64,000 nt of DNA from an uncultured Gammaproteobacteria bacterium (GTDB lineage Bacteria; Patescibacteriota; Patescibacteriia; Magasanikbacterales; UBA922). The stretch lies in assembly GCA_964612105.1 (NCBI GenBank), contig CAZTEU010000005.1:45039-109038 (forward strand), in the 5' to 3' direction. The notes under the pieces are model-generated. The model was not told the DNA's origin, did not search any database, and saw only the letters and a program-made list of their open reading frames with translations. Numbering within the stretch: position 1 is the first letter of the stretch; each line of letters begins with the position of its first letter. The position numbers and the translations under genes were made by a program. Below, in pieces: positions 6,902 to 53,898 of this stretch.

Positions 6902-8080
6902 TCAAATTAACTTTACAACATCTCTCCAAGTAACAACTATAATTAAAATCATAAGCAACACAAAACCTATCATATGTGCTGTCTGCTCATATTTCATTGG
7001 TACAGGTTTTTTTGTAATCTTCTCTATTATAACAAATAATAGGCGCCCACCGTCAAGTGCAGGGATTGGTAAAATATTTAATGCGGCCAAAGATAATGAA
7101 ATTACAGCACTAATGTGGATTAAATAGCTTATTCCCAACTTAGCACTTGCACCAATAACATTAGCTATACCAACAGGACCAGCAACCTCAAACAACAATC
7201 CTTGGCCTACAATAAGATTTTTAATTAACAAGAAAAATCCAATAAATATATTCACTAGCATTATGCCTGCTCCCATAAATCCTTTTACAATAGCTAGATG
7301 CCATGGGTAACGAACTATACCTGCGTTTCCAAGAATCACGCCAAGCTTTGGAACACTCTCTCCTTTTATCATAGCTGGGGCTATGGAATAGCTAATCTTT
7401 TCCTTTCCTCTTAATATTTCTAGTTCTATAGTATCAGAAGACGCTTCTGTATGCTCGTTAATATAACCAACCATTTCTGCCATGTCTTTAATCACCATTC
7501 CATTTATAGCAAGCACCTTATCTCCATATTGTATTCCAGCCTTATCTGCTGGAGTATCCACTTGCACCTGCTGTATCATTACAAAAGGACCCTCAACAAT
7601 AACTGCACTGTCATCAACACCACCACTAATATCTGTAGGTAAACCAATCATTAATCCTCCTGCTAGAAGCAACGCAGCAAGAATAAAATTCATTGTAACA
7701 CCAGCAACCAAAACCAAGGCTCTTTTCCATAACGAATGATACATAAAAGAGTCTTTCTCATTCCTTGCCTCACCATTCTCCCCTTTTATTTTTACAAAAC
7801 CACCTAGTGGTAACCAGTTAAAAGAATAAAGAGTCGTTGGATATTCCTGCTCTCTTTTCTCTCCACCAGCTGTTTGTTTTAATGAACTCTTTCCATTTCC
7901 CCACACCCACCTCCATTTTCCTGTTTTTGGATTCTTATAAACCCCACCAAGTCTTGGAGGAAAACCAAGACCAAATTCATATACTTTCATTCCGCTTTTG
8001 CGTGCAACAATAAAATGCCCCCATTCGTGGGCAATAACAAGTACAGATAATACCGCTAAGAAAATTATTAGTGTTAGCAT
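6902..8080 (-). CDS. rseP: RIP metalloprotease RseP / site-2 protease (M50) with PDZ domain
   Basis: HEWGHF (HExxH) in first TM, PDZ-like middle, C-terminal TMs. Confidence 0.85.
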   Translation of the reverse strand: MLTLIIFLAVLSVLVIAHEWGHFIVARKSGMKVYEFGLGFPPRLGGVYKNPKTGKWRWVWGNGKSSLKQTAGGEKREQEYPTTLYSFNWLPLGGFVKIKGENGEARNEKDSFMYHSLWKRALVLVAGVTMNFILAALLLAGGLMIGLPTDISGGVDDSAVIVEGPFVMIQQVQVDTPADKAGIQYGDKVLAINGMVIKDMAEMVGYINEHTEASSDTIELEILRGKEKISYSIAPAMIKGESVPKLGVILGNAGIVRYPWHLAIVKGFMGAGIMLVNIFIGFFLLIKNLIVGQGLLFEVAGPVGIANVIGASAKLGISYLIHISAVISLSLAALNILPIPALDGGRLLFVIIEKITKKPVPMKYEQTAHMIGFVLLMILIIVVTWRDVVKLI

Positions 8081-8208: not shown

Positions 8209-8559
8209 ATGGATAAATACACAGTATGGCATAATCCCAGATGTGGAAATAGCCGAGGAACAATAGAACTGTTAAAAGAAAGAGGTATAGAGCCAGATAT
8301 AAAACTATATTTGGAGAACGTCCCAAGTGAAGATGAGCTAAAAAATGTTGCTAGACTTCTTAATAAAAAACCTATTGAGTTTACTAGAACAAAAGAGAAA
8401 GCGTTTAAAGAAGCAAATCTGAGAAAAGATAGTAGTGATGAAGAAATAATTAAGGCAATGAAAAAATATCCAATACTTATACAAAGACCAATTGTAATAA
8501 AAGACAATAAAACAGCAGTAATAAGTAGACCGCCAGAAACCGTGCTAGATTTCATATAA
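8209..8559 (+). CDS. ArsC/Spx-family protein (arsenate reductase-like, thioredoxin fold)
   Basis: MDKYTVWHNPRCGNSRGT... N-terminal Cys in ArsC/YffB-like context. Confidence 0.75.
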   Translation: MDKYTVWHNPRCGNSRGTIELLKERGIEPDIKLYLENVPSEDELKNVARLLNKKPIEFTRTKEKAFKEANLRKDSSDEEIIKAMKKYPILIQRPIVIKDNKTAVISRPPETVLDFI

Positions 8560-8560
8560 C

Positions 8561-8590
8561 AAAAAAAGCGCTATGCGCTTTTTTTAATAC
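8561..8590. terminator. rho-independent terminator (AAAAAAAGCGCTATGCGCTTTTTTT)
   Basis: Stem AAGCGC/GCGCTT with flanking A/T runs. Confidence 0.75.
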
Positions 8591-8679
8591 TAGACAAAAA
8601 GGTATGGGAGCGAACGAATCTTGTTTCTACGCCCCCTCAACCCCGCCCCAGATGGGACTAGTGTGGGACGGCGAGGCTA

Positions 8680-8916
8680 CTAACCCCTACTCGTGGTGTT
8701 GCTGTTCCAGACGAGGTCGAAGACCAGCGCCAGGAATAGGCTCATCGTGCAGATGCAGAACAGCACGATGCCGGTGTCGAACATCATGTGCTCGAAACCG
8801 TTCAGCCTGATACCATTGCAGCTGATGGCTGCACTTCGGTACATCGCGGATGCACCACCCACGATGAACAGAACTATGCAACCGATGAAGCAAGAACCAA
8901 ACAGCTTCCAGAACAT
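8680..8916 (-). CDS. small membrane protein (78 aa), island A gene 1
   Basis: Two hydrophobic helices; AAGGAGGGGAAA immediately upstream of ATG (rc of 8917-8932). Confidence 0.6.
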   Translation of the reverse strand: MFWKLFGSCFIGCIVLFIVGGASAMYRSAAISCNGIRLNGFEHMMFDTGIVLFCICTMSLFLALVFDLVWNSNTTSRG

Positions 8917-8990
8917 TTTCCCCTCCTTGAGGAATAGGTAACCTTACGGTCACCAGCGATAAGTACGTTCGCTCAACCTTTCTATCTAGT

Positions 8991-9040
8991 ATAGATTGTA
9001 AAGAGTTTTTGTTTTACCAAACAAAGAAGTGACGGGAGTG
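8991..9040 (+). repeat. intergenic repeat copy 1 (TTGTAAAGAGTTTTTGTTTT ... AAGAAGTGACGGGAGTGAA)
   Basis: Near-identical 20-mer plus related purine-rich 19-mer also at 9576-9628; third inverted partial copy at 9955-9975. Confidence 0.7.
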
Positions 9041-9084
9041 AATTGGATTCAGACTCGCCACCTCGCAGGCTCCTTCTCCTGCGA

Positions 9085-9498
9085 TCAGCGACGGCCCGTG
9101 TGTTGCTCGTCTGCGATCGTCGCCACCCCGGCGAACAGGATAGCGACACTGATGAGCCCAAGGATGGCCCACACCGTCGCCTCTGGATTCAGCACCATCT
9201 GGGCGCTGAATATTCCGCCGTACATGACGGCGGTGAAAACCATCCCAGCGAAGCTCGCCAACCAGACGAACATCCCCGTAACCAGGATTACCATCCCATC
9301 CCAGCGGGAGAAGGTCGACAGGTTGCAGATGCAACCCAAACCAGCCGCCACGAAGATGAAGGCGCCGATCAACAGCGCCAATGTCGCGAACTCGAGGAGG
9401 AACGGCAGGGTGAACACCCAGCCGAACACCTTCATGGCCACGCCCATGATGGTCGCGACTAGAGCCAAACTGACCGTCGGGATATCAAAGAAACGCAT
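9085..9498 (-). CDS. polytopic small membrane protein (137 aa), island A gene 2
   Basis: Four hydrophobic segments; CAAGGAGGAGAAAATG upstream. Confidence 0.6.
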   Translation of the reverse strand: MRFFDIPTVSLALVATIMGVAMKVFGWVFTLPFLLEFATLALLIGAFIFVAAGLGCICNLSTFSRWDGMVILVTGMFVWLASFAGMVFTAVMYGGIFSAQMVLNPEATVWAILGLISVAILFAGVATIADEQHTGRR

Positions 9499-9575
9499 TT
9501 TCTCCTCCTTGCTCGTCTACTGACGAGCTGTAGGCGTTTCGTCCAAAATTCACTCCACTTCTTTATTTGGTATAA

Positions 9576-9628
9576 GTTGTAAAGAGTTTTTGTTTTTCTA
9601 CTAAACAAGAAAGCGAGGAGGTGAACAT
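9576..9628 (+). repeat. intergenic repeat copy 2 (TTGTAAAGAGTTTTTGTTTTT ... AGAAAGCGAGGAGGTGAA)
   Basis: See copy 1. Confidence 0.7.
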
Positions 9629-9683
9629 AGTACGTTACAACCCCTCGCTGGAAACTGCTCCACAGGAAAAGGGTTGAAAGATC

Positions 9684-9920
9684 TCACTCGACGTCGTTGC
9701 ACACCGAGCGCACGGGCTCCTCATCGCTGTACCAGCCGAGGGGGGCTGCATAAACGACGAGGCCACCGATGCTCCCGAGGGAGGCCAGGGACAGACCCAG
9801 AATGGCCGTCTCCACCCGCCCCGCATCAGGGACGAGGAACAGGCCGGTGGCGAAGAGCCCCAGACCCACGAGGAGGAGGATGAAGAAACAGTGGGAATCA
9901 CGATCACGGCGACTACGCAT
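9684..9920 (-). CDS. small membrane protein (78 aa), island A gene 3
   Basis: Two hydrophobic helices; GGAG 8 nt upstream of ATG; TG-extended -10 promoter at 10027-10040. Confidence 0.5.
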   Translation of the reverse strand: MRSRRDRDSHCFFILLLVGLGLFATGLFLVPDAGRVETAILGLSLASLGSIGGLVVYAAPLGWYSDEEPVRSVCNDVE

Positions 9921-9954
9921 GGCAAACTCCAGCCTAGGTTACTTGAACGACGAT

Positions 9955-9975
9955 GTGTCGGACTTGTTCACCTCG
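9955..9975 (-). repeat. inverted partial repeat copy 3 (rc: AAGAAAGCGAGGTGAACA)
   Basis: Reverse complement matches purine-rich half of copy 2; lies about 40 nt upstream of island A gene 3. Confidence 0.6.
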
Positions 9976-10026
9976 CTTTCTTACTTAGTATATTTTAAGG
10001 TACTACTATCCTATTTTACCAACACA

Positions 10027-19889: not shown

Positions 19890-21224
19890 ATGACAAAAGA
19901 AACAATAATCTTCGTGTGCTCTAACTGCGACGCTCAATTCCAGAAATGGACTGGACAATGCTTCGAATGTGGTAAATGGGGTACAGTAGAAAACAAGACA
20001 GCAATCACAGATAACAAATCTGGAGACAGTAAAGTTATTGGTGTAGGTGTAAACACACAAAAGCTAGGTGAAATAAAAAATGTAGATTCTTTTAGGAACT
20101 CCTCAAAAATTGGAGAACTAGATCGTGTTCTTGGTGGTGGAATAGTACCAGGTAGTTTAATACTTCTTGGAGGAGAGCCTGGTATTGGAAAATCCACTCT
20201 TTCTTTGCAAATTGCAAACAATATGAAAAAGTCACTATACATTTCTGGAGAAGAATCAATAAATCAGATTAAGATGAGAGCAGACAGACTTGGTAATGCA
20301 AATGCAGATATGTTAGTTATGCATGAGAATGATATAGAAAATATATGCGCAACAATAAAAAAAGAGTCTCCGGAGATTGTAATAATAGACTCAATACAAA
20401 CAATGATATCCAATGACACAAGTGGAGAGCCTGGAAATGTAAATCAGGTGCGTGTGTGTGCAACAAAGCTTTTGGATTCTGCTAAGCAAAGTAAGAGTGC
20501 TATAGTTATTATTGGTCATGTTACAAAAGATGGTTCTGTTGCTGGACCAAAGACTCTGGAACATCTAGTAGATACTGTTTTGTACATTGAGGGAGATAGG
20601 TACTACCAAACAAGACTTTTGAGAACAATAAAAAATAGGTTTGGCTCTACAGATGAAGTAGGTGTCTTTGAAATGAACGAACTCGGTCTTAAGGAAGTAA
20701 AAAACCCATCATCTGCTTTCTTAGAAGAGCGTGCAGATGATACGCCTGGCAGTGTTGTTACTTGTCTTATAGAAGGCACTCGCCCACTACTAATTGAGGT
20801 GCAGGCATTAGTAAATAAAACTAGTTTTGGATATCCTGTACGCAAAGCAAGCGGTTTCGATCTAAATAGATTACATGTACTTGTAGCTGTACTACAAAAA
20901 AGAGCAGGACTGCAGTTAGGTCAGTATGATATCCATGTAAATGTAGTTGGAGGATTAAAAGCACAAGAGCCGGCTGCAGACTTAGCAGTATGTCTTGCTA
21001 TAGCAAGCTCTTTTAAGGACAAGGTACTTGGTGGAGATTTGGTAGTTTTTGGAGAAGTTGGATTAGGTGGAGAAGTAAGAAGAGTAAATCAGTCTCAAAA
21101 AAGAATAAAAGAGTGTGAGAAACTTGGTATGCAACGAGTAGTAACTTCCAAAAACCCAGGTAATGTTCATGGAACAAAGATTATAGAAGTAAAGAATATA
21201 GCAGAACTAATCCAGAAAACATAA
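19890..21224 (+). CDS. radA: DNA repair protein RadA (Sms)
   Basis: N-terminal C4 zinc finger (CSNCDAQFQKWTGQCFECGKWG), RecA-like Walker A GEPGIGKST, KNRFG motif, Lon-like C-terminus. Confidence 0.95.
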   Translation: MTKETIIFVCSNCDAQFQKWTGQCFECGKWGTVENKTAITDNKSGDSKVIGVGVNTQKLGEIKNVDSFRNSSKIGELDRVLGGGIVPGSLILLGGEPGIGKSTLSLQIANNMKKSLYISGEESINQIKMRADRLGNANADMLVMHENDIENICATIKKESPEIVIIDSIQTMISNDTSGEPGNVNQVRVCATKLLDSAKQSKSAIVIIGHVTKDGSVAGPKTLEHLVDTVLYIEGDRYYQTRLLRTIKNRFGSTDEVGVFEMNELGLKEVKNPSSAFLEERADDTPGSVVTCLIEGTRPLLIEVQALVNKTSFGYPVRKASGFDLNRLHVLVAVLQKRAGLQLGQYDIHVNVVGGLKAQEPAADLAVCLAIASSFKDKVLGGDLVVFGEVGLGGEVRRVNQSQKRIKECEKLGMQRVVTSKNPGNVHGTKIIEVKNIAELIQKT

Positions 21225-21244
21225 AACCACCTTGTGGGTGGAAT

Positions 21245-21610
21245 ATTGACCGCCGACCCGCCCGAACCACTCAGAAGCAAGCTTCTTTGTGATCCGGACA
21301 GGTCAGACGTGTGAGACTGGTTGAGAACTACACCATACCAACGTGGGCATTGGAGATTCCGATGGAACCCCTGATGATCTGGCCAGACGCTGTGAGGTTG
21401 TAGTTGGAACAGGCACGAACATACCCGCGGTAATTCTCACGGTCATCTTCCGTGCGATTACCGCTCAGAATCCACCTCGCGTAGTCCTGAGGGATTCTGT
21501 GCTCAACACGGAGCCTGGCAACAATCTGTCGCCCCTGTGAAAATTCGCTCTGATGGACACTCATGCTCTCTTTCCTCCTGTTTAGGGGTATTTACCCCTA
21601 AGAAATTGAA
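21245..21610. other. GC-rich micro-island B
   Basis: 60-nt sample 21251-21310 counts 36/60 G+C versus 20/60 in adjacent recG 3' end; flanked by hairpins CCACCTTGTGGGTGG and AGGGGTATTTACCCCT. Confidence 0.7.
21328..21564 (-). CDS. hypothetical 78-aa protein, island B
   Basis: CAGGAGGAAAGAGAGCATG upstream; no recognised domain. Confidence 0.5.
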   Translation of the reverse strand: MSVHQSEFSQGRQIVARLRVEHRIPQDYARWILSGNRTEDDRENYRGYVRACSNYNLTASGQIIRGSIGISNAHVGMV

Positions 21611-21636
21611 TTCGTCAAAAACTATATACTAAAATA

Positions 21637-33600: not shown

Positions 33601-33869
33601 GGCGTTTGTGTAGCGGAGAGGAGGTAACCTCAATGCCTGTGGTAATATAAAGGCCCTCAACCCGCTACAAAATACAGGATATCAGAAAAAAGGAGAAAAT
33701 ACAAGAAAAAGAAAAGTCCCGAATAATTTCGGGATTTTTCTCGGCCTTGGGATTACCCTACCTCTATATTACCTACGGACAATTATAGCAATAAAATATA
33801 GATTTGTCAAGTAGGAGTGTAAATAAATCGGAAAAATAAAAAATCATCCTTTTTTAGGATGAATCGTTT

Positions 33870-35060
33870 CACCCTGCCCAGCGTTTCTTGCTGAGCAGGG
33901 TGTGCCTCCTTTTTTGGTAAGGTCATGAGAGACCGAGTGTCCGAGGAACCAAGTTCCACTACCCGAGAGCCAAGGAACCTAGCATCCTAGGGCTGACGCT
34001 TGCTACGGACGAGAAAACGAGAGCGGTCACCCCAGCCGCCGTCAAACCAGCGGAGATAAGTTAAGAGGTGCTGACCGTTGCCGTCGCTCCAGACACACGG
34101 GCAGCCCCGGTCACCGTTCAGGTCCTGCCAGACGCTTCCGAGCGCGACCAGTGGCCATTCCAGACCGACTTCTTGATGTTCGGCGCAGTATACGAGCAAA
34201 TCGCGCAACGAGGCGACCTCGTAGCCTTGTTTCTTGATCTCATCCAGCACTGCTGTGGTGTGCAAACGCTTGTTGAAATGCAAAACCTCGAGACTGTACT
34301 CGTAGTCAGGCTGGTCATCCGGAAGGGGGAAATTCTCGGTAGTGATGTTATATTCGACGTAACCGAACCCACATGCCCCAATGAGCTGTTGTAATTCATC
34401 CGGAGAGGTCTCTTCATCAGAAACGGTCTTCTTACGACGGACCAGGAAACGGTAGTAGTTGATCCACCTGCTCTCAAGCCAGTCGAAATCCAGACGCCGA
34501 CCGTTTCTATCACGCCAGACAAACGGACAACACTGGCCACCGTGCACATTCTGCCAAGTACTCCCGAGTGCGGACAATGGCCAGTCCAGGCCGACTTTGG
34601 AATGTTCGGCGCAGTATACGAGCAAATCGCGCAACGAGGCGACCTCGTAGCCCTGCTTCTTGATCTCATCCAGCACTTCCGTGGTGGTCAGACCCTTGTT
34701 GAGGTGCAGAACCTCGAGACTGTACTCGTAGTCAGGCTGGTCATCCTCGAGCGGGAATTTCTCGCCCATGATGTTATCATCCACTGAGTGGAACTTGCAT
34801 GCTCCAATGAGCTGTTGCAGTTCGTCCGAGATAGGCACTTCGACCAGCTTGTCGAACCGCCCTTCCACAATCGCTTGGAGCGCTTTTTTGACCAGAGCTG
34901 GGTCGTACGGGCACCCCCTCTTCTGCCGAAGCAACCTCTTGATCTCGTGGAGCTGACCATCAATCTCGAAATACAGATCGCCTGCAACGCTAAACGCCAT
35001 GACAATCTCCTCTTTTCTAAGCTACAAATGCCAACGCACTCGCGCCAACACTCTTGCCTG
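33870..35060. other. GC-rich micro-island D
   Basis: Sharp compositional shift; single long minus-strand ORF with RBS, multiple overlapping antisense ORFs typical of high-GC DNA. Confidence 0.7.
33987..35000 (-). CDS. hypothetical 337-aa protein built from two tandem ~150-aa repeats (unrecognised domain), island D
   Basis: AAGAGGAGA upstream of ATG; internal repeat SDELQQLIGAC.F...DDQPDYEYSLEVLH.NK..TT.VLDEIKKQGYEVASLRDLLVYCAEH..VGL.WPL.ALGS.WQ....G..CP.VW.D.NG present twice. Confidence 0.6.
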   Translation of the reverse strand: MAFSVAGDLYFEIDGQLHEIKRLLRQKRGCPYDPALVKKALQAIVEGRFDKLVEVPISDELQQLIGACKFHSVDDNIMGEKFPLEDDQPDYEYSLEVLHLNKGLTTTEVLDEIKKQGYEVASLRDLLVYCAEHSKVGLDWPLSALGSTWQNVHGGQCCPFVWRDRNGRRLDFDWLESRWINYYRFLVRRKKTVSDEETSPDELQQLIGACGFGYVEYNITTENFPLPDDQPDYEYSLEVLHFNKRLHTTAVLDEIKKQGYEVASLRDLLVYCAEHQEVGLEWPLVALGSVWQDLNGDRGCPCVWSDGNGQHLLTYLRWFDGGWGDRSRFLVRSKRQP

Positions 35061-35157
35061 TTTTGGAACTGGATAAAGCATACCAAAATATCACTATATG
35101 TCAAGTATGGTGCTAGAACTTGCCAAAATAGTAAAAAATGGTTAAAGTAAATGGGCT

Positions 35158-43436: not shown

Positions 43437-43799
43437 ATGGCATCTAGACAGTATGAGTTTTTGGACAAGACCGGAGAGACTTGGTACCACATCGTAGAAG
43501 GTATGTGTCCCGGCATTTGGGACCTGATTATCAACTCACTTGTGCGCGGTAACCAGTGCACTGTGATAATCTACACCCAAAGCCAAGCCTCTGGACAAAG
43601 ACTGGGCATCGAGCTGACACACCTGAAGAGTGTCACCAACCTCACGTCGTACGTCGACAAAGAGTGCGAAGAGTGGGCACTCGTTGCAACAACCCCGTGG
43701 AACTGGGTAACCGTGCGGTTCAACACCAAGACGCGACATGGACGCCTCCGGTTCCTGACGAAAGAGGAAGAGAGGGTGTGCACCACGCTCATGGAGTAG
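43437..43799 (+). CDS. hypothetical 120-aa protein, island E (start at MASRQYEF after AAGGAGG)
   Basis: CAAGGAGGTGTCGTTATG; ORF track's longer 43308 start lacks RBS. Confidence 0.5.
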   Translation: MASRQYEFLDKTGETWYHIVEGMCPGIWDLIINSLVRGNQCTVIIYTQSQASGQRLGIELTHLKSVTNLTSYVDKECEEWALVATTPWNWVTVRFNTKTRHGRLRFLTKEEERVCTTLME

Positions 43800-43821
43800 A
43801 GGTAACCCCACACAGACGACA

Positions 43822-43862
43822 AGACCCCCGTTCCTGCAAGGTTCGGGGGTCAATTCTTTTTT
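43822..43862. terminator. terminator GACCCCCGTTCCTGCAAGGTTCGGGGGTC + TTTTTT
   Basis: 8-bp GC stem. Confidence 0.75.
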
Positions 43863-43868
43863 ATAAGA

Positions 43869-45641
43869 TTATTTCTTTTTCTCTTTTCTTTTCTCTAAAC
43901 CTAACTCTTCCAACTGTTCTTTGTCTACCTCTGCAGGACTTCCCATCATTGGTTCTTCTGCTTTCTGGTTTTTAGGGAATGGCACAACAGAACGGATATT
44001 GTTTTCTCCAAGTAGTAACATTGCCAATCTTTCTATTCCAGGTGCAAAACCGCAATGAGGAGGTGCTCCATATTCAAAAGCATCTATCATGTGTCCAAAC
44101 TTTTTGTCTACATCATCTTTGGAATAACCTGCAATTTCAAAAGCTTTGTACATAATCTCCGGATCCTTGTTTCGTACAGCTCCAGATGATAATTCTAATC
44201 CGTTTGCAATAATATCATACTGATAACCCAGTATATCCAATGGGTCTTTATTTTCTAGCGCCTCCATTCCACCTTGTGGCATAGAGAATGGATTATGACT
44301 AAAGTCTATCTTGCCTGTTTCTTTGTCTTTTTCATACATTGGAAAATCTACAATCCAAGCCCACGCAATCATGTTTGGATCTGCTAGTTCCATGTTCTTT
44401 CCAACAAGATGACGAACAGCACCTAGTGCTTCACAACTCACCTTCCAACTGTCTGCAACAAAAAACACAATACTCCCCTCCTCTGGTTCTAATCTTTCTT
44501 GTAAGTCATTTAATGCTACGCCTGTAAAGAGTTTCTTAATTGGTCCACTAAATCCACCATGCTCGAATTTCATCCAAGCAAGACCTTTTGCATGATTTCG
44601 CTTTGCTACATCTTCATATTCATCAGTTATATCTTTTCTAGAAAATGAAGCTCCACCTGGAACATACAATGCTTTTATACTCTCTGCTTCTTTAAAAATA
44701 TTAAAATCTGTTGCATTTCCCCAGTCTGTAAGATCTATTAGTTCCAAATCGTAACGCAAGTCTGGACGATCTGAACCATATCTGTCCATTATTTCTGTAA
44801 ATGCTAACCGAGGTATTTTTTTATCTTTTAATTTCTTTTTAGCAACCTTCGTTGTAAGTTCTATAAAAAGAGGTTCCATTAAATCGAAAAACTCATCCTG
44901 TGTCATAAAGCTTACTTCACAATCTAGCTGATAAAACTCTCCTGGCGAACGGTCTGCTCGCGGATCTTCGTCTCTCATACAAGGCGCAATCTGATAATAT
45001 TTATCAAAACCTGCAACCATTAGTAATTGCTTGTATTGTTGAGGCGCCTGAGGCAGAGCATAAAATTTTCCTGGATGAATTCTACTTGGAACCAAAAAAT
45101 CTCTAGCACCTTCTGGAGAGCTCACTGTAAGAAGAGGTGTGGCAATATTTATGAAATCATTCTTTTCCATATAATTGCGAATATGCTTTTCCATTTTCGA
45201 TCGAAACAATACGTTATTCTTCAACTTCTCACGTCGCAATTCAAGGAAACGATACTTTAGACGCAACTCCTCTTCCTCTTCACCCTTACCAGAGTCGAAA
45301 ATCTCAAACGGCATTGTTTTTGCCTCACTTAAAATCTCTAGCTCGCTAGCTAAAACTTCAATCTCTCCTGTTTTTAATTTTTTATTTACTGTTTTTGAAT
45401 CTCTTTTTACAACCTTTCCAGTAATTTTTATTATAAATTCATATTTTAAAGTCTCTGCCAAACCAAAGTCTGATACTTTGTCAGGATTAAATACAACCTG
45501 AGTAATTCCATAGCGATCTCTTAAATCAACAAAAATAAGACCACCTAGGTCTCTGCGCTTATGCACCCATCCGGCCAAAGAAACCTCTTTGCCTGTGTTT
45601 TTTTTGCTTAATTCTGCGCAATTGTGAGTTCTATATGACAT
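43869..45641 (-). CDS. aspS: aspartate--tRNA ligase (bacterial type with GAD insertion)
   Basis: 590 aa, anticodon-binding OB fold N-terminus, class II motifs, FRDE/GGSIR-type region. Confidence 0.9.
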   Translation of the reverse strand: MSYRTHNCAELSKKNTGKEVSLAGWVHKRRDLGGLIFVDLRDRYGITQVVFNPDKVSDFGLAETLKYEFIIKITGKVVKRDSKTVNKKLKTGEIEVLASELEILSEAKTMPFEIFDSGKGEEEEELRLKYRFLELRREKLKNNVLFRSKMEKHIRNYMEKNDFINIATPLLTVSSPEGARDFLVPSRIHPGKFYALPQAPQQYKQLLMVAGFDKYYQIAPCMRDEDPRADRSPGEFYQLDCEVSFMTQDEFFDLMEPLFIELTTKVAKKKLKDKKIPRLAFTEIMDRYGSDRPDLRYDLELIDLTDWGNATDFNIFKEAESIKALYVPGGASFSRKDITDEYEDVAKRNHAKGLAWMKFEHGGFSGPIKKLFTGVALNDLQERLEPEEGSIVFFVADSWKVSCEALGAVRHLVGKNMELADPNMIAWAWIVDFPMYEKDKETGKIDFSHNPFSMPQGGMEALENKDPLDILGYQYDIIANGLELSSGAVRNKDPEIMYKAFEIAGYSKDDVDKKFGHMIDAFEYGAPPHCGFAPGIERLAMLLLGENNIRSVVPFPKNQKAEEPMMGSPAEVDKEQLEELGLEKRKEKKK

Positions 45642-49940: not shown

Positions 49941-51458
49941 TTATTTTAGGAATACGTCTATGTTAACTATCCCACTCTTTTCATCCTCCTCAGTAAATTT
50001 CTTGTTTATACTTTTCTTTTCTAAACCATCTTTCTCCACAACAAGAGTAAAATCCCCGACAGCTACAGGCAAAAAATATCTACCAAACATATCTGTAACT
50101 GTGTATGCTATTCTTTTCTCATACGGTTTCTTAAACAAAGACACCACGGCCCCAGATATTGCTTTGTTATCTTTCGTGTATATCTTTCCAAATTTCTTAC
50201 GTTTATCTTTTCTTGTAAGTCTGAGGAATATAATTAAGAGTACAACGTGCACAGCAACAAGTACCCATACCCACCATGAACGAACAAAGAGTAAGGCCAG
50301 AGCAGAAAGGAATGGCGCAATATAACCAACTGTACGACCAATTCTCCTTTGCCATTTTTTTAACTTAAACCTACCAACGCTCGGCTTACCTTCATCTGGA
50401 TCTAAAGGAACTTGTTTGTCTATAACCACTTCCTTATTCTTAACATCCACACTTCCTCCTAAATAATTCTCTGGATTATCTTTTCCAAATACAGACGGAA
50501 AGGAAAAGCTTTGTTTACTTGCCTCTAACTCATACACTCCCGGAGGAGTAAGGAATAAGTAGTTTCCATTCTTGCCTGTAACAGCACTTTTAATAACTTT
50601 CTTTGTATTAGAATCTATAAGCCTTACAGAACTTAGGTCTAATGGATTTTTTGTAATGGAATTAAATACTGTTCCCCAAGTCTTATACTTTCTTCTCCTT
50701 AATAACAGCAATGGTTGTGCAAGTACAAATTGACCAAACAGTATGGTTGTATGTATGCCACTTGCAAAAGGAATGTTTAACACAGCTAGCCCCGCAATGA
50801 CAGGGGCTGTCTTTTTAATGACACACTGTTCTACGTATGAGTAGTCTTTTTCTGTTGGGTTTGTTATTAAGGTTGTAATGTCTGCAACATTATTAACTTC
50901 TAAAGATTCTTTTGCACAGTCTATAACAACTGCTGTCTTACCATACGTATTTGCAAGACTTTCTAAACCAACAGATCCAAAACAATTAGAAATTTCATTC
51001 TGCACCTCTGCGCTTATAGCCCCAGAAAGATTATATGTATTGTTTAGTCTTTCTATACATTCACCCACCTCTTTTGACTGCTCATTTGTAATATTACTTA
51101 AATCTGAATACTGAGCAGAAAGCGTGTCCTTTAGTACAGGTAATTCCCAAACTTTGTTTAATGATTGCTCTTCATAGCACGCAGATAACTCTTTCTGATA
51201 CTCCTGATACAACCTACCCTGACTACAATCTGCCAGTAGTACTATGTATTCTGGATTAGAGGTATCATCCGCATACTTATCATTTACTCCAGCTATACAC
51301 TCCTGCGAAGAGGCGCTGTATTCTTCTGTTACACGCTTAATACAATCTGCAGATGCCTGCTGTCCATCATTCTGTGCATGTACCACACCAAAAGACACAA
51401 AAAAAGAGCCAAAAAGGACAGCAAACAGTAAAAGAGATGTTTTGATGTGTTGTCTCAT
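49941..51458 (-). CDS. hypothetical secreted Cys-rich protein with TM and C-terminal transthyretin/CarboxypepD_reg-like beta domain
   Basis: Signal peptide; Cys-rich N-domain; GKNGNYLF...PGVYEL beta-sandwich-like motif. Confidence 0.45.
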   Translation of the reverse strand: MRQHIKTSLLLFAVLFGSFFVSFGVVHAQNDGQQASADCIKRVTEEYSASSQECIAGVNDKYADDTSNPEYIVLLADCSQGRLYQEYQKELSACYEEQSLNKVWELPVLKDTLSAQYSDLSNITNEQSKEVGECIERLNNTYNLSGAISAEVQNEISNCFGSVGLESLANTYGKTAVVIDCAKESLEVNNVADITTLITNPTEKDYSYVEQCVIKKTAPVIAGLAVLNIPFASGIHTTILFGQFVLAQPLLLLRRRKYKTWGTVFNSITKNPLDLSSVRLIDSNTKKVIKSAVTGKNGNYLFLTPPGVYELEASKQSFSFPSVFGKDNPENYLGGSVDVKNKEVVIDKQVPLDPDEGKPSVGRFKLKKWQRRIGRTVGYIAPFLSALALLFVRSWWVWVLVAVHVVLLIIFLRLTRKDKRKKFGKIYTKDNKAISGAVVSLFKKPYEKRIAYTVTDMFGRYFLPVAVGDFTLVVEKDGLEKKSINKKFTEEDEKSGIVNIDVFLK

Positions 51459-51489
51459 AATGGATGTAGTTTAGCAGAATGAGAGTAAA

Positions 51490-52060
51490 TAGCAAAACAA
51501 AAAAACACCATATTAGTGTTCTTTTGAATTGGGCCGAGATTTTGTATAGGTACTCGGCCGTTTAACCTATGTTGTCGTACTCCCCTTACTCGGTAGGCAT
51601 CTCGACATCGCTGACGTCGACACCTAGAGCCAAGGCGCATACTTGGTAGTCCGCGACGCGATTCTGGTAGATCGACCCTCCAACGCATCGCACGAAGCGC
51701 GTAACGAAGTCCTTGAACCCGTGGTCCAGGTCCATGGCAGTACAGATGATGTGAGATGCCGCATACCTGAAGTCTTCGTCGACCATACCATACATGAAGT
51801 TCTGCAGGGCACTCTCGCAGAGTCCACCACACAGTGAGTCAGCCAGAGGGATGTCCTTCCAGGCGATGTAGGTACGGTTATTGTAGCCACGTTCCTCGTG
51901 AAAGAGTGTTTCATATGAGACCCCCTTCTCTTGAATCGCCGCTTTATTGAGGAGCCAAACCTTCAGACACTTGCTGACCTGGGCTTGCAGATACTGATTC
52001 ATTTCCATCTCCTTGTAAAGAGCCTCTATTTTGTCCTCCACCACGCCTTTTTGTGATTTC
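51490..52060. other. GC-rich micro-island F
   Basis: Compositional shift bounded by hairpins (AACACCATATTAGTGTT, GGCCGAG...CTCGGCC). Confidence 0.65.
51586..52002 (-). CDS. hypothetical 138-aa Cys-containing protein, island F (start at MNQYLQ after AAGGAG)
   Basis: CAAGGAGATGGAAATG; ORF track GTG start further upstream lacks RBS. Confidence 0.5.
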   Translation of the reverse strand: MNQYLQAQVSKCLKVWLLNKAAIQEKGVSYETLFHEERGYNNRTYIAWKDIPLADSLCGGLCESALQNFMYGMVDEDFRYAASHIICTAMDLDHGFKDFVTRFVRCVGGSIYQNRVADYQVCALALGVDVSDVEMPTE

Positions 52061-52205
52061 AGAACGCCTTAATATACCACGAAATGGAGCGTATGTCAAT
52101 GGTTATATAATGCCATAGGTCTGTTATAAGGCTATACATAGCCCTTTTTGTTAATGTTGTCAGAAGTATTGACATATCAAGCATATTATGCTATACTATA
52201 TACAT

Positions 52206-53021
52206 ATGATTGCAGAACGCCATTTAATACAATTAGGCCTTTCTGAGAAGGAATCTCAGCTATATATCTCTACTCTTAAACTTGGATCTGGAACAGTGCA
52301 GGAAATAGCTAAAAATGCCTCTATTAAGCGCCCTACTGCCTATGTTGTGTTGGATCAGCTGGTAGAAAAAGGTCTTGTATCTAAAAAACTAGGCAGTTCT
52401 GGTACCTCATATATTGCAGAAAATCCGGATAAGTTAGAAGGTCTTGTAGATAAACAGAAGTTTGCACTTTCTAATGCTCTCCCTCTACTAAAAGACATAT
52501 ACAAAGAAGAGGTAAATAAACCCCATGTAAAGATATATGAAGGAATAGAGGGAATGAAAAAAGTATATTTTGATACTGTATGGAAAAGTAAGTCAGAAAT
52601 ATTATACTTTGCTTCTATAAGAAAAATAGATCAACTATACCCTGGACTGTTAGATCAGTGGGTAAAGAACTTTAAGACAAAGTATGATTTTCAGCCGGTG
52701 GCTAGAGAATTAATTAATCCAGACAAGGAAGATTTAGAATACGGTGTTGAATTTTCTTTATCAGATAAGAATAGACAAACACGTGTTATTCCAAAGGGCT
52801 TCCCTACTAAATTTGTTGGTACGGATAATGCTATTTTTGATGACAAGGTTATGTTTGTCTCTCTGGAAGGAAAGTTGTTTACAACCCTAATACAAAATAA
52901 GATATTAGCAGACACTATGCGTACGCTCTATGAACTTGCCTGGAGTGCTTCTGTTCCTATTGAAGAGTACATAGAAAAAAATAAAGAGGAATTCCCTGAT
53001 TTGTATAAAAAACTCAAATAA
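52206..53021 (+). CDS. TrmB-family HTH transcriptional regulator
   Basis: N-terminal HTH LSEKESQLYISTLKLGSGTVQEIAK, TrmB-like C-domain; start at MIAERH. Confidence 0.7.
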   Translation: MIAERHLIQLGLSEKESQLYISTLKLGSGTVQEIAKNASIKRPTAYVVLDQLVEKGLVSKKLGSSGTSYIAENPDKLEGLVDKQKFALSNALPLLKDIYKEEVNKPHVKIYEGIEGMKKVYFDTVWKSKSEILYFASIRKIDQLYPGLLDQWVKNFKTKYDFQPVARELINPDKEDLEYGVEFSLSDKNRQTRVIPKGFPTKFVGTDNAIFDDKVMFVSLEGKLFTTLIQNKILADTMRTLYELAWSASVPIEEYIEKNKEEFPDLYKKLK

Positions 53022-53088: not shown

Positions 53089-53898
53089 CTATTTCTCACC
53101 AGGTCGCCTTGTTACAACAAGAGGTCCTTTAGCGTCGATTATGATCGTATGCTCTGCATGCGCACTCAAACTTCCGTCTTTAGTGCTAATGCTCCATCCG
53201 TCGTCTGCAGTAGTAACTTCATGATTACCTAACGTAATCATAGGTTCTAGAGCAAGCACCACACCTTCTTTTAGTTCCCACTGTTCCATTTCTTCGCTGT
53301 AATAGTTTGGTACATGTGGCTCTTCATGAACATCATGCCCAACACCATGTCCCACTAAATCTCTTACAATTCCATATCCCTGTGGCTTAACATAATCTTC
53401 TACAGCTCTTCCAATATCTGCGATTGTACCTCCAGGCTGACATGCTTCTATTGCAAGTTCCAATGCTTTGTTTGTTACAGAAACTAATTGTTTTGTCTTT
53501 TCATCTACTTCCCCAACTAGAACTGTGGTGGCTGTGTCTGTAAAGAAACCATTTCCATTTTTTCCTTCACCTTTGTTTGCTGGCCATTGCATGCCAATAT
53601 CTATACTAAAAATATCCCCGCTTTTGAGTACTTTTTCTTTTGATGGAATACCATGAACAATTTCCTCGTTGATACATGCACAAATAGCTCCAGGAAACGG
53701 ACTACCACTGCCACCGGAGTATCCCTTAAAAGCAGGTAAACCTCCAACCTTTTCTATTAGTTCTACGGCTCTTTCATCTATTTTTAGTGTAGCGACACCA
53801 GGCTTTGCCATGCGACCAAGCTCCTCTAGAATCTCACCAATAAGCTTACCACCTTGTGTTAGTAGTTTTATTTCTCTTTTGCTTTTAGTATAGGACAT
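53089..53898 (-). CDS. map: methionine aminopeptidase type I
   Basis: Pita-bread fold metal ligands (D, D, H, E, E spacing); 269 aa. Confidence 0.9.
   Translation of the reverse strand: MSYTKSKREIKLLTQGGKLIGEILEELGRMAKPGVATLKIDERAVELIEKVGGLPAFKGYSGGSGSPFPGAICACINEEIVHGIPSKEKVLKSGDIFSIDIGMQWPANKGEGKNGNGFFTDTATTVLVGEVDEKTKQLVSVTNKALELAIEACQPGGTIADIGRAVEDYVKPQGYGIVRDLVGHGVGHDVHEEPHVPNYYSEEMEQWELKEGVVLALEPMITLGNHEVTTADDGWSISTKDGSLSAHAEHTIIIDAKGPLVVTRRPGEK

Follow-up and report, generated by a model that had tools for sequence, protein, structure and literature searches.

TrmB of Archaea, with a sugar ABC transporter encoded divergently from it, is an example of a TrmB-family regulator paired with a divergent target operon. 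Another relevant kind of unit is the phage moron, a Hendrix/Juhala concept, the criteria for which are summarised in PMC2920897. Horizontal gene transfer into Patescibacteria, amounting to up to 13% of genome length, has been documented (PMC12455944). Species-specific orphan genes typically match the GC content of their host (PMC11293555). The locus described here, island F, has features of each of these. It lies in the window, that is, the whole 64-kb stretch of DNA that was analysed, and the host is a Magasanikbacteria-like CPR bacterium, the closest named relatives of its Map protein being Candidatus Magasanikbacteria MAGs (60-62% identity). We consider island F to be probably an acquired, moron-like, single-gene piece of accessory cargo of foreign-looking composition in the chromosome of this bacterium.

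The original prediction described a GC-rich island with a Cys-containing ORF of 138 aa at 51586-52002, preceded by AAGGAG, followed by two hairpins and set between the gene of a secreted protein and a TrmB-like regulator. All of these elements are present (Table 1). The translation of the ORF is identical to the predicted one, and its strand, which had been left unstated, is minus; AAGGAG occupies positions 52014..52009, 6 nt 5′ of the ATG at 52002, and both hairpins are found 3′ of the stop codon. The regulator matches PF01978 (52.3 bits, cut-off 25.6; E = 5e−14) and thus belongs to the TrmB family, and the secreted-protein neighbour is a 505-aa protein with CarboxypepD_reg domains, whose gene is separated from the ORF by the predicted terminator. 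The wider neighbourhood encodes ribosomal proteins, SecY, Adk, Map, RuvX, RecO and AsnRS.

Table 1. Features of the island F region, GC-rich patches of the window and TrmB-linked cargo in related loci
Feature	Position	Strand	Description
Orphan CDS	51586..52002	minus	ATG start, 138 aa, 15.6 kDa, pI 5.0
Predicted promoter of the ORF	52071..52099	minus	sigma-70-type; TTGACA, 17 nt, TG-extended TATATT; 11/12 matches
Predicted 5′ leader	52003..52064	minus	~60 nt, holds AAGGAG; start placed from the promoter position
Hairpin 1	51532..51559	minus	GGCCGAG-N14-CTCGGCC, 26 nt past the stop; 3′ end of the GC-rich segment
Hairpin 2 and T-run	51498..51526	minus	AACAC-N7-GTGTT at 51504-51520; terminator-like by scan, AT-rich, host-like composition
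Palindrome GGCTATACATAGCC	52130..52143		between both divergent promoters; partly conserved in relatives; candidate operator
Palindrome TGTCA-N7-TGACA	52158..52174		overlaps trmB −35; candidate TrmB operator
Predicted trmB promoter	52169..52197	plus	TTGACA, 17 nt, TATACT
TrmB-family wHTH regulator	52206..53021	plus	conserved start ATG 52206; mechanical ORF from 52188
Downstream neighbour, membrane/secreted	49941..51458	minus	505 aa; hydrophobic N-terminus, CarboxypepD_reg domains, host-like composition
GC-rich patches of the window	8547-10009, 21193-21625, 33834-35077, 43438-43894, 51503-52010		the last is island F
L015 (1.23-Mb contig)			TrmB 81% identical to that of the window; cargo: NMT1-type ABC transporter operon of host-like GC
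L017			TrmB 69-70%; cargo: GC-rich 243-aa gene (GC3 0.86), PEP-utilizer gene and, beyond it, a homologue of the 505-aa protein
Contig carrying P0013 and its fragment L021			TrmB 51%; cargo: Metallophos gene
L022			TrmB 50%; cargo: 253-aa gene and PEP-utilizer gene
L023			TrmB 50%; cargo: DUF3865 and 251-aa gene
L027			TrmB 47%; cargo: 239-aa unknown (GC3 0.79) and PEP-utilizer genes
L026			TrmB 46%; cargo: SD-led 105- and 202-aa unknowns
His-phosphatase-like cargo	L017 7071-7802, L022 4514-5275, L023 121-876, L027 4010-4729		beside TrmB and PEP-utilizer genes

The predicted GC richness was borne out: over ~51503-52010 GC is 0.51-0.55, against a window mean of 0.378. The window holds ~57 long ORFs, and their GC3 is bimodal with no intermediates. 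Host genes have GC3 values of 0.15-0.36 (about 0.27) and almost no Shine-Dalgarno (SD) sequences, whereas GC3 of the ORF in island F is 0.67. When ~50 host genes were scanned for SD sequences within 20 nt of any plausible start, those of 6-7 nt turned out to be confined to the ORFs of GC-rich islets, and the best host gene, map (53089-53898), reached 5 nt. Codon usage of the ORF correlates negatively with that of the host (r = −0.39) and positively with that of the other GC-rich islands (r = +0.62). Because both GC3 and SD use differ from those of ~50 host genes and codon usage runs counter to that of the host, we judge the composition of the gene to be foreign.

Two starts can be considered for the ORF, the ATG at 52002 and an upstream GTG at 52044, which would extend the product to 152 aa (the mechanical ORF). 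We favour the former since AAGGAG sits 6 nt upstream of it. GC at the three codon positions is 0.57/0.35/0.67, a spread that was equalled by none of 20,000 shuffles (p < 5e−5). The ORF is the longest one, and its stop-free run of 157 codons was reached in 1% of island shuffles. The SD and the predicted promoter and terminator likewise speak for a gene. As the protein has no homologue and all of its copies in public assemblies are identical (they form a cluster of four members that differ solely in the called start), we conclude from intrinsic signals only that the ORF of island F is a protein-coding unit. Its six Cys residues in 138 aa correspond to 4.3% compared with 0.9% in host proteins. 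The 138-aa sequence has neither a transmembrane or hydrophobic segment nor a signal peptide, and it is helical by prediction in a low-confidence single-sequence AF2 model (pLDDT 41). From these properties we infer that the product is a small acidic, helical, Cys-rich cytoplasmic protein serving as a lineage-specific accessory factor.

The protein was searched for extensively. A word-index search of 5.8 billion clusters retrieved only its own cluster, and an exhaustive phmmer search of 1.84 billion representatives retrieved only the protein itself. No match was found by tblastn against phages and plasmids or by a scan of IMG/VR. In line with the expectation that no domain would be recognised, there were no families at E ≤ 1 in Pfam and PADLOC and none at E ≤ 0.1 in PHROGs and NCBIfam, and the best match among PDB sequences had E = 0.75. 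The structural search that had been suggested as a check gave no match with E ≤ 0.001 either: Foldseek against PDB, run with the low-confidence AF2 model built without an alignment, returned a best E-value of 0.98. Paralogues are missing from both the window and the fetched loci. In comprehensive databases the protein thus has no homologue outside the species, which is how species-specific orphans are defined, and as far as these searches reach the ORF is an orphan gene.

Sequences from NCBI, ENA, JGI and Logan contain the orphan protein in identical form on more than 20 contigs, among them ones of 390 kb and 269 kb, and in two other samples (L001 and L002) the region is 99.8-99.9% identical to the window with no SNPs in the island. 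An assembly artefact can therefore be excluded, and the orphan gene is real and fixed in the population. All 12 SNPs relative to L001 and all seven relative to L002 fall into two tight clusters inside map (53095-53146 and 53521-53530), and this clustering suggests short recombination tracts.

Fixation of a family-less gene may also be read less favourably. Island F could be a recently acquired foreign fragment with an intact ORF, i.e. functionless, neutral 'junk' awaiting deletion or AT-decay; the gene is a singleton without a family, its composition is unameliorated, its structure model is of low confidence and it shows zero variation in the population, so that purifying selection is not demonstrable. 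We find this unlikely. CPR genomes are streamlined, and no sampled contig of the species lacks the island or differs in it. The unit is also neatly whole: the SD is ideally spaced, the frame is intact, a hairpin follows, and all of it stands exactly behind a strong conserved promoter.

That promoter is part of a control region shared with trmB. The predicted promoter of the ORF diverges from that of trmB, and in an alignment of six homologous intergenic regions its −35 and −10 blocks show little or no variation. The bidirectional promoter/palindrome region as a whole is conserved in eight relatives. TGTCA-N7-TGACA occurs once in the 64-kb window; it is also located just upstream of trmB in L015-L019 and L021-L023 and can be recognised in L026 and L027 as well. 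This palindrome and GGCTATACATAGCC are conserved across the clade, the latter in part, and are likely operators. That TrmB controls the ORF through the conserved palindromes is plausible, but it is put forward as a conjecture because the TrmB palindrome lies ~60 bp from the −35 element of the ORF. The leader, too, is partly shared: its first 35-40 nt are ~68% identical, as counted on the alignment, to the leader in L017. Since the start of the leader is common to both loci, the novel segment begins ~25-40 nt upstream of the ATG. As to the other end of the unit, a GC-rich hairpin analogous to hairpin 1 comes after the cargo gene of L017. In addition, a 24-nt direct repeat (79% identity) is formed by positions 52054-52077 and 52207-52230, so that the orphan leader region, in its plus-strand reading, resembles the initial codons of trmB (ATGATTGCAGAACGCC...). 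The resemblance between the leader and the start of trmB is visible in L017 as well, and a past duplication of the 5′ end of trmB may have left the repeat behind.

Comparative genomics of the intergenic gap, proposed as a further check of the original prediction, revealed a variable slot. In the more distant Magasanikbacteria L003 and L004 ruvX directly follows map. Closer relatives were located through TrmB homologues, while a scan of metagenome contigs with TrmB produced a single distant locus (24% identity) and was uninformative. The content of the trmB-to-ruvX interval differs in L015 and L017, and the genes found next to TrmB range from a transporter operon to unknowns (Table 1); like the orphan gene, this cargo is usually GC3-rich and SD-led. 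Because the control region is conserved while the cargo of the relatives differs, the ORF occupies a conserved expression slot in which cargo turns over.

The 243-, 253- and 251-aa proteins of L017, L022 and L023 constitute one family with RHG...GRGxHTG...TSHFE motifs and a weak match to PF00300. At the L017 locus the public gene call is a 293-aa, R/V/L-rich product on the plus strand (6969-7850), opposite the SD-led 243-aa ORF (7071-7802, minus strand). The public call looks like a shadow ORF, and for this reason the RHG/TSHFE family may be missing from protein databases. Members of this His-phosphatase-like family diverge in step with TrmB: identity is 63% between L022 and L023 (69% for TrmB) and 39% between L017 and L022 (51% for TrmB). 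Their GC3 is nevertheless 0.86-0.96 in L017, L022 and L023 and 0.79 in L027, compared with a background of 0.4-0.7. High GC3 is therefore no proof of recent transfer in this clade, since the His-phosphatase-like cargo tracks TrmB yet stays GC3-rich, and something other than recent import may keep slot genes GC-rich.

These observations are what a native origin would draw upon. The orphan would then have arisen within the TrmB slot, either de novo or by fast divergence, and would owe its high GC3 not to import but to the factor, whatever it may be, that maintains GC richness in the slot genes of this clade. In most relatives the cargo beside TrmB is SD-led and has a high GC3, including cases of apparently vertical inheritance, and the leader is partly common to L017. 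We nevertheless rate such an origin as decidedly improbable. The ORF was examined as a possible remnant of the relatives' cargo and this was rejected, as there was no similarity by BLASTP, hhalign (probability 0.5%), blastn (word size 7) or tblastx. The lengths also disagree (138 aa against ~250 aa), four other GC-rich, SD-led islets elsewhere in the window are unlinked to TrmB, and the typical match of species-specific orphans to host GC mentioned above is not seen here.

The four other islets have GC of 0.50-0.54, with ORF GC3 values of 0.59-0.81, and their ORFs are without a family match. All five islets are built alike. A TTGACA-type promoter lies in AT-rich DNA and is followed by a leader and a strong SD; the ORF and the hairpin after it are GC-rich, and an AT-rich terminator closes the unit. 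Several details of the other islets may be recorded here. The island at 8.5-10 kb has an array-like look, with a 48-nt AT-rich direct repeat (81% identity; 8968-9015 and 9549-9596) located 5′ of two of its three tandem minus-strand ORFs. The 337-aa protein encoded at 33987-35000 (minus strand) consists of an internal tandem duplication. A single-unit, 195-aa version of it is encoded at L025 1895-2482, in a strain with ~98% DNA identity and a 100% identical RelA. Cassette swapping between strains at this 34-kb island was considered and rejected, because all that distinguishes L025, at 98% DNA identity, is one internal tandem repeat unit that was either lost or gained. A 49%-identical paralogue of the 337-aa protein is recorded on a contig of 390,833 bp, and a 38%-identical homologue is found in a 57%-GC organism (L024 5001-5588), ~2.9 kb downstream of CBASS genes (CD-NTase, Cap15), with a gene for a type I RM methylase (HsdM) further upstream at the same locus.

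A bolder reading connects the slot with these islets. In Magasanikbacteria-like CPR bacteria, the conserved bidirectional promoter that is linked to TrmB, where the ribosomal-protein/secY-adk-map cluster ends, would be a dedicated 'cargo slot' for SD-led, GC3-rich single genes that are captured or exchanged and kept GC-rich; together with the other four islets, they would make up a distinct, mechanistically mobilised gene class undergoing cassette-like exchange without a recognisable recombinase, and island F would be its newest, family-less cargo. We regard this extension as quite unlikely.

GC-rich islands in AT-rich genomes are often RNAs, so that island F could in principle be a structured non-coding RNA or cis-element, with the ORF being incidental. 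The sense strand does fold slightly better than shuffles (z = −2.26), but this value includes the two terminal, terminator hairpins, and the antisense strand gives z = −0.06. Rfam yielded no match when the whole window was scanned at the gathering threshold, nor when positions 51400-52250 were scanned at E ≤ 5, and the strong three-base periodicity and low GC2 are coding signatures. A non-coding element is thus very improbable. The abrupt change in composition might even suggest that GC-rich DNA was joined to a CPR contig through chimeric assembly or contamination. Yet assemblies made independently from several samples and sources show the same junctions, on contigs of up to 390 kb and with 99.8-99.9% identity to the window across the island, leaving the likelihood of such an origin next to negligible.

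Acquisition of the island as accessory cargo, which we favour, would involve the following steps. The SD-CDS-hairpin unit would have entered the slot, by acquisition or by a swap, once the lineage with the 81% identical TrmB had branched off, displacing an ancestral cargo that presumably comprised the His-phosphatase-like and PEP-utilizer genes. Transcription would start from the resident promoter at 52099..52071, possibly under TrmB control via the palindromes. A leader of ~60 nt would be followed by SD-driven translation from the ATG at 52002, transcription would terminate at the tandem hairpins, and the product would be a small acidic cytoplasmic protein.

Taken by itself, the orphan gene adds yet another hypothetical protein to a CPR genome, and an acquired accessory gene is an ordinary kind of finding. 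The locus nonetheless provides a clean example of a compositionally foreign, SD-led orphan that became fixed in a streamlined, SD-poor symbiont genome, where the control region has been kept and the cargo turns over. If the slot is truly regulated by TrmB, it illustrates how ultra-small bacteria connect new genes to regulation that is already in place, and the slot would be a natural place for lineage-specific host-interaction or metabolic factors. The persistently high GC3 of slot genes that appear to be vertically inherited may merit a clade-wide survey.

Among known systems, an integron cassette resembles island F in being a compact CDS with a 3′ hairpin behind a resident promoter and in the interchangeability of its cargo, but island F is a single unit rather than an array. 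An integron origin was rejected: the 3′ hairpin has no RYYYAAC...GTTRRRY attC core pair, and no integrase gene is called within 6 kb on either side. With the species-specific orphans and acquired islets of Patescibacteria (PMC11293555; PMC12455944) island F shares the short protein, the restriction of homologues to one species, the position in a variable region and the setting in a genome that receives genes by horizontal transfer. It departs from the typical orphans in GC, the GC3 of its ORF being 0.67 against ~0.27 in the host, and in carrying a strong SD in an SD-poor genome. As in TrmB divergent units, a wHTH regulator of the TrmB family and the gene beside it have in common a bidirectional promoter region that bears palindromes, and in L015, the closest relative, an ABC transporter operon takes the place of that gene; in the window the putative divergent target is instead an orphan. 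The phage moron provides the most detailed comparison. Unlike morons, island F belongs to a cellular chromosome, where it lies at the end of the ribosomal-protein/secY-adk-map cluster and outside any phage or prophage, and its ORF has no PHROG match. Consensus-like promoter and terminator sites are predicted for it, the promoter being part of a resident control region that the clade has conserved instead of one brought in with the unit. Since it lies outside a phage, we call island F moron-like and not a moron. As with morons, it is a single-gene unit between genes that are adjacent in relatives (map and ruvX in L003 and L004), its GC deviates from that of the surroundings (0.51-0.55 against 0.378), and the hot spot holds a different unit from one genome to the next.
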